Assembly (NCBI GenBank): GCA_016217925.1
Contig: JACRFK010000004.1
Span: 133,869-197,868, forward strand
Direction: 5' to 3'
Source: Candidatus Kaiserbacteria bacterium
GTDB lineage: Bacteria; Patescibacteriota; Minisyncoccia; Phycocordibacterales; UBA2100
DNA: 64,000 bases
Under the pieces are notes generated by a model. The model ran no database searches and was not told the origin of the DNA. It worked only from the letters and a program-made list of their open reading frames with translations. Numbering within the stretch: position 1 is the stretch's first letter; each line of letters opens with the position of its first letter. The translations under genes and the position numbers were made by a program. Shown piece by piece: positions 7,432 to 9,686 of the stretch.

Positions 7432-7512
7432 ATGGCGGCAGATTTGAAGGGGCTTAAGACGCAATTTCTCCCCGCCGGAGGCGGGTCCTCCTCCGGAGGA
7501 GAATACTTATGA
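7432..7512 (+). CDS. 26-aa upstream ORF repeating the Xer N-terminus, coupled by ATGA
   Basis: [32 protein letters not shown] just upstream; stop overlaps ATG 7509. Confidence 0.6.
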
Positions 7513-9686
7513 AAGACTTAAAGGGTTTGAAAACCGAGTTTCTGGAGTATATAGAAATTGAAAAAGGGCGGAGCGTGAAGACGGTCGAGAATTATGACCG
7601 CTATCTCATGCGGTTCCTCAATTTTGCAAAGGTGAAGTCCCCTGCCCAGATAACCGAGCAGATGGTGCGTGAATTCCGTATCACACTCAATCGTTCCGCA
7701 GGGGTTACAGGCACGATGAAGAAGAATACACAAAATTATCACCTCATCGCGCTGCGCGCGTTCCTCAAGTTCCTCCGCAAGCGTGATATCGAATCGCTCA
7801 ATCCCGAGCGTATCGAACTTGCCAAGGTCGGTGGACGCGATTTGGATCTCATTACCGCCGATGAGCTCAACAGGATCATGCGTGCGCCCACGGGTGACGA
7901 GCTAGGGGGTCTGCGCGACCGCGCGATCCTCGAACTTTTGTTTTCTACCGGTTTGCGCGTCTCGGAACTCTGCAATTTGAATCAGGATATTGACCTCTCT
8001 CGCGATGAGTTCTCGGTGCGCGGCAAAGGAGAAAAGGTGCGCGTGGTATTTCTCTCGGCGTCCGCGAAAAAAGCGGTGGCCGAATATTTGAAAAAGCGCG
8101 GTGATATGAGCAAGGCGTTGTTCGTCAGTTACGGCAAAGGCGGCACGAGCAAGGGAAAAGATTTACCGCGCATCACTCCGCGCTCCGTCGAGCGATTGGT
8201 AAAACAGTACGCGATAAAAGCGGGCATCACGCGCAAAGTGACGCCGCATGTCATTCGTCACTGTCTCCACGCGGAAACGCGAATAATGGGAAACCCTTCG
8301 CTCACAACGGCGAAGGAGTTGTTCGCATCCGAAAAGCAAAAGAAGGTCCTTGGATTTGATTGGAAAAACAATCGTCTCATGCGGGCCTCGATTAAGAGAC
8401 GTGAAACACATTCCACACAACGCCTGATTTCTTTATGGGCGGACGGCCGGGAAATTTGCTGCACCCCGTACCACAGCTTTTTCACCCCGAGCGTTAACGG
8501 TATTGTGCCGATACAAGCACAAGACCTGAAAGTTGGGGATTATGTAGCGGGAGTTCGCAGTGTTCAATGGTCCCAGGGAAGTAGACCCGAAAGCGAATCC
8601 ACGGACTTTTGGAGATTGCTTGGATATATTCTTGGTGATGGAACGCTTAGTGAGGCACGGCGAGGTATTATCATAAATGATAAAGAACGTCGCCACATTG
8701 ACCTATACAACGAAATTGTTTTTCGTGTGACGGGCAGGTGCGGAACCGTCACTAAATTGTCAGGCGGCAATGGGTACGCGCTCAATATCTACAATGTTGG
8801 TTTTCTGAAAAAGGTACGAGCTCTTGGAATTACACAGCGTTCAAAAGAACGGCGTGTCCCCGCGGGCCTGTTTCAGGAGTCCGAGACCGCGATCCGAGCC
8901 TTTCTTGCAGGCTATTACGATGCCGAAGGAAATAACGGCAGGATTAAGATGTTCTCCGCAAGTAAGGAACTTCTGAAAGACATACAAATGTTGCTGCTCC
9001 GGTTGTCTATCGAGAGCATACTGCTCCGCCGAGAGCGGCGAGTGAAACTTCCCCAAGGTCGGGTCATTGACCACGTCATATACATACTGCATGTGACGTA
9101 TCCACCAAGCGAGAATCGCTTTGTGGAACTCATACCAACATTCAAACAACGCATACGACCGAAAAAAGAGTGGCAGCGACTCGATATTGCATTACCTACG
9201 CAACCACTGATTCGAGGACTCTACCCCCTTTTGCTTGCCAAGAGGGGTTTCATCCATTGGCTCGGTAACCGTTATGGCATACGGTACCTGAAACGTTATA
9301 CAAGAATATGTACAACACCGCTGCTGCTCTCTGTGTTTCTTAAGGCCTGCAAAGAAAAAAGAATTCGAAATCCATTTATCAAGCAACTCGAGGTTCTCAA
9401 CCGACTCGATTCGATTCGATGGCTCCGAGTGAAGAAGCTGGAGATGGTCGGCGGTGTATCGAAAGTTTACGATTTCACGATAGAACCAACGCACAATTTC
9501 ATCACAGATGGTTTTATCTCGCACAACTCATTCGCGACTGACCTACTCGAAAATGGTGCCGATCTGCGTAGCGTGCAAGCGCTCCTCGGCCACGCCAACA
9601 TCGCAACGACCCAAGTCTACACGCACGTGACCGACAAACACCTCCGCGAAGTCCATCAGGCATTTCACGGCAAACGCCGCAAATAA
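7509..9686 (+). CDS. XerC/XerD-like tyrosine recombinase containing an intein
   Basis: [31 protein letters not shown]|intein|[34 protein letters not shown]; spliced product about 303 aa. Confidence 0.93.
8262..9527 (+). mobile_element. intein (422 aa) with LAGLIDADG homing endonuclease
   Basis: Starts Cys (CLHAET), block [14 protein letters not shown] and [10 protein letters not shown] motifs, VYDF block F, ends HN before Ser+1. Confidence 0.93.

Follow-up and report, generated by a model that had tools for sequence, protein, structure and literature searches.

A hairpin cassette and a probably displaced start in front of an xer gene of an ultra-small bacterium

Why should a gene for a Xer-family recombinase be preceded by a short reading frame that spells nearly the same N-terminal peptide in other codons and stops on the start codon of the gene itself? 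The question is raised by a 64,000-nt stretch of a Candidatus Kaiserbacteria genome (contig JACRFK010000004.1, positions 133,869 to 197,868), hereafter the window, which belongs to a 0.98-Mb metagenome-assembled genome of completeness 100 (G000). A preliminary description of the window had considered the upstream frame (uORF) as a recoded duplicate of the xer start. The reading favored here, to which we give a probability of about 0.58, inverts this order. The uORF would be the displaced xer start, separated from its gene by a gene-less hairpin cassette that likely arose from a nick made by a GIY-YIG nuclease in single-stranded DNA and likely spread by transformation, and translational coupling would keep xer expressed. 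From the anatomy of the cassette and its recurrence, which are observed, we infer the nick, the donor and the route of transfer.

The xer locus is organized as follows (positions in the window).

7380..7413, no strand: near-perfect inverted repeat (14 bp, 6-bp spacer) in the xer promoter, outside the cassette
7420..7425, plus strand: TACAAT -10 box, 6 nt upstream of the old ATG, predicted to give a leaderless transcript
7432..7470, plus strand: probable native xer start, 13 codons with typical codon choice, now the front of the uORF
7471..7500, no strand: twin-hairpin repeat of 30 bp, in frame, with Leu and Glu codons of the old start on either side
7501..7508, plus strand: 8-nt remnant of the old gene (Glu-Tyr and two bases) between hairpin and new ATG
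7509..7512, plus strand: ATGA, new xer start codon overlapping the uORF stop, found in all five filled xer alleles
7509..7559, plus strand: putative replacement N-terminus, codons 1-17, synonymously re-spelled; native spelling from codon 18 according to the allele comparison
7509..9686, plus strand: Xer-family tyrosine recombinase of 725 aa (Pfam, NCBIfam), with a LAGLIDADG intein at about 8265-9527

The uORF (7432-7512) translates as [30 protein letters not shown] and its TGA (7510-7512) overlaps the xer ATG (7509-7511). The leaderless position of the ATG at 7432, the coupled stop and the double hairpin had all been pointed out in the preliminary description, and each is borne out: the TACAAT box is correctly placed, the ATGA is present, and fold prediction resolves the 30-nt insert into two 6-bp hairpins, the RNA fold of the whole region being unremarkable (z -0.14). 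The repeated peptide in different codons is equally real. Over DLKGLKT(Q/E)FL, the two starts have 9 of 10 residues in common but only 2 identical codons among 11 comparable ones, and their longest identical run is 5 nt. Since this pair of terminus and flank scores 47 and no shuffled pairing reached 45 (1016 predicted genes), the duplication is not due to chance. The intein (8265-9527) interrupts the catalytic region of Xer. An open xer frame of similar length (740 aa) was found only in G019 among the relatives from the first search. A half-site of the promoter inverted repeat occurs in 97 of 108 xer loci. This palindrome may be an operator or a dif-like recombination site, and because it lies away from the GC-skew maximum of its contig it is not named dif here.

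That the layout could be an assembly chimera of two strains was considered, the genome being metagenome-assembled. A 15,085-nt contig of sequencing run X1 (depth 18.9) shows 0 differences across 6500-9800, and another contig is identical over the start of fusA (depth about 19). As X1 is perhaps the source sample itself, the stronger argument is recurrence: the xer layout is also found in four other genomes or contigs. A chimera thus has a negligible probability. As to an excised or empty form in the same population, no joint that skips the xer unit was listed among the assembled contigs of four runs, of which X2-X4 contain small shares only.

Which of the two starts is the original? In all, 111 xer loci were examined (gathered as 30 + 1 + 80), and 93 alleles were kept after dropping nine loci of other families, duplicates and short ends. 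The unit is present in five of them (filled alleles) and missing from 88 (empty alleles), a frequency slightly inflated by one filled allele, L068, which was retrieved with a junction-directed pattern. Most empty alleles start with MA-x-DLK-x-LKTQFLEY, and 62 of the 88 have TAnnnT 5-8 nt upstream of the start. It is the upstream copy of G000, hereafter the shadow, that occupies this native position, and it differs from the empty allele L080 at only 2 of 39 nt. The new start is identical to L080 and L079 at 30-31 of 45 nt, as against 44 of 45 between these two alleles, and in the next 45 nt identity to them returns to 42-43 of 45. The boundary of the re-spelled patch is sharp, at codon 17. Codon typicality gives the same picture. 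In G000 the old start scores 0.43 and the new one 0.26, under all 88 empty alleles; over the filled alleles the new starts range from 0.26 to 0.39 and the shadows from 0.43 to 0.51, for a median of 0.49 and a minimum of 0.35 in the empty alleles. The gene bodies of the filled alleles have no such rare-codon bias. Position, likeness to L080 and codon typicality together indicate that the uORF is not the duplicate but the displaced native xer start, and that the start now in use belongs to a patch that extends to codon 17.

The synonymous divergence had been attributed either to acquisition from a homolog or to selection on both copies. The former appears likely. Selection on both copies as peptides does not fit the absence of the unit from 88 of 93 alleles, nor the altered shadow of G024; as the shadow is the host's own displaced start, its likeness to Xer needs no selection. 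A search for the donor of the new start among the 88 empty alleles found none, the new start being atypical of all of them. In G000 xer, lineage-specific residues (KG) are common to the new and old copies, and the same is seen in three tuf pairs; such residues fit self-duplication equally well. One clade of empty xer alleles (L129-L150) has re-spelled codons around the Leu-Glu insertion site, which are possibly scars of lost cassettes.

A survey for uORFs homologous to the downstream N-terminus had been proposed. It does find them, in the five filled alleles out of 93, and does not find them conserved. The remnant between hairpin and new ATG measures 8 nt in G000, G024, G115 and L073, and 7 nt in L082. 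One junction is common to four alleles, that of L082 being different, and the G024 shadow has gained one codon and changed residues. With the junction-directed pattern, 3 of 151 family genomes matched, G000 included. On a tree built from 600 nt of the xer gene body (105 rows, six short loci omitted, bootstrap not fully settled), the five filled alleles require 5 changes, a number to be read with the many open forks of a single-gene tree; the starred branches force at least 3 changes, and the filled alleles are grouped in 0% of 200 bootstrap trees. The unit thus appears scattered over the tree rather than confined to one clade. An allele with the hairpin alone in frame, the expected precursor, was not seen among the xer alleles listed. 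A pattern for the lepA junction matched G000 only among 116 genomes.

The preliminary description had also seen the same architecture at fusA. This is correct as to the layout, at 60014-60118, and the hairpin is a different one.

60014..60049, plus strand: probable native fusA start, 12 codons, matching each of the empty alleles L037 and L177 at 29 of 30 nt
60050..60114, no strand: hairpin element of another family, decayed remnant and spacer
60115..60174, plus strand: putative re-spelled replacement start, ATGA-coupled to the uORF stop, with 52 of 54 nt in common with the filled allele L161 and with the cassette-free allele L184

Four of 60 fusA alleles are filled, with a different hairpin in each. 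The new start of G000 and that of G122, which belong to two species, have 52 of 54 nt in common, and the shadow is decayed in G093. In L184, which has no cassette, this patch follows a native leader, which matches what is expected after loss of a cassette. One fusA match, L177, was rejected by eye as a chance cassette. In G000, the N-terminal cases are xer, fusA, uvrB and one glycosyltransferase.

Beyond gene starts, the 30-bp twin hairpin has 44 copies in G000, of which 40 lie inside ORFs, in the reading frame. A stop-anchored scan of the same genome returned 11 C-terminal duplicates at a score of at least 24, for 1.4 expected, and a hairpin stands between the copies in 10 of the 11. The genes are read as topA, smc, lepA, pnp, ychF, tuf, nusA, rplB and two unnamed ones. 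Two further cases below the scan threshold, rplL and efp, were chosen by eye, and rpmG and uvrC came from separate scans; one C-terminal match (C6:66131) was rejected by eye as chance. In relatives, 7 of 340 gene ends score at least 25, against 2 in the null. A single polar order is common to xer, fusA, uvrB and more than ten C-termini: the new terminus is followed by a short native remnant, then by the hairpin and the old terminus. In a cassette, the hairpin is inside the old terminus. As judged by eye, the remnant is in most cases between a few and about 14 nt long and lies where the hairpin faces the new copy (Pro-His-Asp codons in lepA, Gly-Glu-Tyr in efp, Ala-Gly-Val in tuf, 4-5 nt in rplB and nusA). 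The hairpins of a given family, again by eye, always turn one and the same end to the new copy, the gene running in their direction at C-termini and in the opposite one at N-termini.

Over 20 C-terminal pairs, hand-summed with stops included, 75 codons are identical, 113 synonymous and 19 non-synonymous, the last figure being lowered by detection through peptide likeness. In 14 pairs of G000, 39 of 112 codons are identical, as compared with 42.2 +/- 4.9 for random draws. The re-spelling is therefore fully scrambled, not excessive, and the idea of recoding beyond saturation, hinted at by xer and smc, was abandoned on this pooled value. Pure AT drift was also rejected as a full account: third positions changed 39 times from S to W and 20 times from W to S, a bias that is insufficient.

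A scan of species genomes (4 of 64 parts, 120 loci, with about 2100 stretches estimated overall) found the twin hairpin in several CPR groups, Omnitrophota, Kiritimatiellae and others. Fourteen of 135 oriented matches have flanking duplicates at a score of at least 28, for 1.3 in the null, and they include two protein starts and several tRNA ends; as the pattern demanded an ATG 4-24 nt downstream, remnant length is biased there. Long-range, cargo-bearing shadows in G000 number 5 against 7 in the null, and only rpoC is convincing. Its tail duplicate (C1:285700-288100) consists of 17 codons located 2.3 kb downstream, with cargo genes between, little re-spelling and no hairpin.

What enzyme could act at such hairpins? 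Besides UvrC, G000 has four small GIY-YIG genes. One of them, beside tRNA-Glu at about 264,930-265,210 of C1, has the twin hairpin upstream in the same orientation, as do its counterparts in G067 and G083, and the distance from hairpin to GIY-YIG start is 9-22 nt in these three genomes and in L285. In G067 and G083, which are 2 of 4 pattern matches in 116 genomes, the order is old tRNA front, hairpin, 4-nt remnant, GIY-YIG gene and intact tRNA, the duplicated tRNA front being intact. By its order of parts, the tRNA-Glu unit can be described as the xer layout plus a nuclease gene. The nuclease ORF itself is absent from all five filled xer alleles and present in tRNA cassettes only. The arms of a second hairpin family are also those of a mobile GIY-YIG gene, and a ComEC-family gene lies within the window. 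The CPR GIY-YIG proteins match the Pfam GIY-YIG family, with no NCBIfam match above cut-off.

Several related arrangements were noticed. At C8:58824-59105 of G000 (L225), and in L226-L239, a 94-aa GIY-YIG gene is bounded by inverted arms of 13 bp, and 4 nt of the target are duplicated. In the best 15 loci (71-100% identity), inspected by eye, this element occupies the start codons of 12 different genes, uses the target ATG and restores a start by ATGA overlap. From its structure, it resembles an insertion sequence whose enzyme is of the GIY-YIG type. An in-frame palindromic insert (PVR...SNG) at 4880-4945 of the window, in a rarA/mgsA-like gene, has the same arms and is likely a gene-less derivative of this element. 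At C6:39100-39486 (L155), an old tRNA-Ser front is split by a double hairpin and followed by a 9-nt remnant, a GIY-YIG gene and an intact tRNA-Ser; used as a query against 151 genomes at E<=1e-20, this GIY-YIG gene had no match but itself. In L336 and L311, a tRNA fragment and the twin hairpin are repeated in tandem, as if the cassette had re-inserted into its own new copy.

Other mobile systems were considered and set aside. No TnpB/Cas12f nuclease is encoded in G000 (0 matches to PF07282), which speaks against an IS200/IS605 TnpB guide system. A diversity-generating retroelement does not suit changes that affect all four bases, are nearly all synonymous and are not confined to template adenines. 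The sole gene with a reverse-transcriptase domain is unlinked to xer; it encodes 526 aa (C1:280504-282084, L065), lies behind rpoD and is convergent on it, and is by reading of a defence type. Four Y1 (RAYT-like) transposase genes are present (C6:63734, C6:88217, C1:27096, C1:295840), and REP-associated Y1 transposases were rejected because their own flanking repeats are unlike the hairpins studied here. Carriage by phages was not retained either: the twin hairpin occurs in 2 viral stretches, neither with an evident cassette.

How would xer be translated after such an insertion? The 3' end of the 16S rRNA (G000 C8, near 477-550) has no anti-Shine-Dalgarno motif, and SD-like words are not enriched among 742 starts (66 versus 60 in the control). 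Leaderless -10 boxes precede 221 of these starts versus 42 in the control, so that about 30% of ATG starts are concerned. In all 13 N-terminal cassettes the uORF stop lies within 5 nt of the new ATG, and 10 of the 13 show ATGA, as compared with 42 of the 591 pairs of closely spaced genes in G000. Stop-start overlaps were strictly coupled in 13 of 14 pairs tested elsewhere (PMC6728339). Given this constant coupling in a genome devoid of anti-Shine-Dalgarno, stop-start coupling likely keeps xer translated. It would act as a survival filter rather than as a regulatory design.

Considering these data, the following scenario may be put forward. A hairpin comes to lie in frame within the old start, as it does at xer, and at a distance of a few bases, always on the same side of the hairpin, there follows another copy of the terminus that has no hairpin and is unrelated in its synonymous codons. 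The joint would mark the place where an Ssn-like nuclease made a nick during strand invasion; the terminus of the incoming homologous DNA would be too diverged to re-pair beyond the hairpin. The resulting unit of hairpin, remnant and new start would then pass from one lineage to another, the old start and the gene body of the host serving as homology arms, and would sometimes be lost. Because of these arms, the old copy would be young and native in each host and the new copy would have its own, always translated, lineage. A native old copy and a foreign-like new copy are what is found, and this was counted for the mechanism. With a leaderless promoter and no Shine-Dalgarno system, a joint would survive only if the new ATG is coupled to the stop of the uORF.

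The same history can be told with no dedicated nuclease. The hairpin would block branch migration during ordinary transformation, and homology-facilitated illegitimate joining would create the duplicate; similar repeat pairs would be lost by hairpin-stimulated deletion, so that only re-spelled pairs persist. One-sided illegitimate recombination is indeed described in naturally competent species (PMC3240628), and such a process accounts for native old and foreign new copies, for saturation and for scatter, the hairpin-free and far less re-spelled rpoC duplicate being in line with it. However, it predicts neither the fixed side nor the short, similar remnants across several hairpin families, and it leaves the identical layout around GIY-YIG genes at tRNAs unpredicted, so that we regard it as rather unlikely. 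The nuclease-based scenario has its own difficulties: a GIY-YIG start stands behind the twin hairpin in just 1 of the 135 wide-scan matches, by a crude motif test; the best PDB matches of the one CPR GIY-YIG protein searched are UPF0213 and SLX1 structures; and SsnA in Neisseria is described as restricting the uptake of hairpin-flanked DNA, not as promoting insertion (PMC11893778).

It may also be imagined that the element duplicates its own target, that the old flanks guide the nuclease to empty alleles and that the new copy is re-spelled stepwise, thereby escaping re-cutting, as in a cleave-and-rescue mini-drive. The extension of re-spelling 5 codons beyond the insertion point, past the remainder of the old copy, would then be understood, and so would the choice of highly conserved genes, the lineage-specific residues common to both copies in some pairs and the identical duplicates where re-spelling is impossible (tRNA-Glu, L257 and L357). 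SsnA is moreover able to cut a hairpin assembled from two oligonucleotides (PMC11893778). Against this, pooled divergence stays at the level of random draws and not above, avoidance of the own shadow is inconsistent (the proportion of empty alleles that differ from the new copy as much or more is 0.15, 0.15, 0.83, 0.27 and 0.93), filled alleles are rare at both xer and fusA, and the TnpB/Cas12f domain is missing from the genome; the drive is improbable. Still far less probable is a regulatory leader, in which selection would keep both copies while the uORF peptide or the hairpin tunes xer expression or permits a ribosome hop. The uORF frame is open and coupled in all five filled xer alleles, and the hairpin of G000 places GGAGGA 8 nt upstream of the new ATG. 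Yet the unit is scattered and usually missing, the shadow is decayed in G024 xer and G093 fusA, GGAGGA is not retained in G024, G115 and L082, the 16S end of G000 has no anti-Shine-Dalgarno motif, and C-terminal shadows, which are untranslated, follow the same pattern.

The displaced-start reading offers one testable mechanism for the Gly/Ser hairpin inserts of CPR proteins, for GIY-YIG genes wedged into tRNA ends and for re-spelled duplicate termini, with pairs of enzyme and hairpin that are named and can be assayed directly. It would also illustrate how a genome without Shine-Dalgarno signals acquires a new start codon, the old start staying on as a coupled leader. For annotation and codon statistics, it implies that gene ends in these genomes may be foreign patches, or that the wrong one of two starts may have been retained. 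A wider and more doubtful proposal, made tentatively, is that ultra-small bacteria host mobile DNA of a distinct class, in which very small GIY-YIG nucleases acting on single strands take the place of transposases or integrases. Its hairpin satellites of 30-100 bp would rewrite both starts and ends of essential genes (EF-G, EF-Tu, LepA, L2, Xer) through natural cleave-and-rescue, the native end being cut off and a re-spelled, cut-resistant copy restoring the gene.

A literature search, with subscription journals largely outside its coverage, found no published description of this layout and none joining GIY-YIG, inverted repeats and Patescibacteria. Parts of the scheme have precedents. Palindromic repeats are tolerated in frame within protein-coding genes in the case of the Rickettsia palindromic elements; the present repeats differ in measuring just 30 bp and in being tied to GIY-YIG genes and terminus duplication. 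Insertions that supply a substitute terminus and displace the native end are known from the icd replacement fragments of e14 and phage 21. Likewise, SXT/R391 ICEs inserted at the end of prfC bring a substitute terminus (PMC7251087). In contrast to the latter, the xer unit measures 77 bp and has no integrase, cargo or long identical att core, more than a dozen genes bear such a cassette, the hairpins being of several families, and the adjacent Xer is the target, not the enzyme of the element. Endonuclease ORFs of fungal mitochondria (Allomyces atp6; Glomus atp6, atp9, cox2 and nad3) are closer in that a foreign terminus is used and the native one stranded, the native terminus is nearer to the alleles of relatives, the protein sequence is conserved and an endonuclease is implicated (PMC3630166). 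Here, however, the hosts are bacteria, N- and C-termini are both concerned, the replaced stretches cover 15-60 bp versus hundreds, the protein-gene cassettes lack a nuclease gene and the hairpin is always within the old copy.

The comparison that bears most directly on the proposed nick is with the Ssn/SRM system. According to Chenal et al. 2025 (PMC11893778), SsnA, a 94-aa GIY-YIG protein of Neisseria meningitidis, binds just one of the two strands of a hairpin repeat in single-stranded DNA, makes its cut a few nt upstream and modulates transformation; they compare the arrangement NTS-ssnA-NTS to an insertion sequence. The available passages of that paper raise mobility as a hypothesis only, and describe no terminus replacement, tRNA cassette or coupled start; if the scenario holds, Ssn-like nucleases would gain a role in mobility. 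NTS repeats number in the hundreds with 2% in genes (PMC11893778), as opposed to 40 of 44 copies in ORFs here. On the other hand, both systems have a single-domain GIY-YIG gene of about 85-95 aa next to an oriented hairpin repeat, a one-sided geometry a few bases off the hairpin (here the remnant side, judged by eye) and a competence gene in the host. By analogy, the hairpin cassette in front of xer may work like the Ssn/SRM system.
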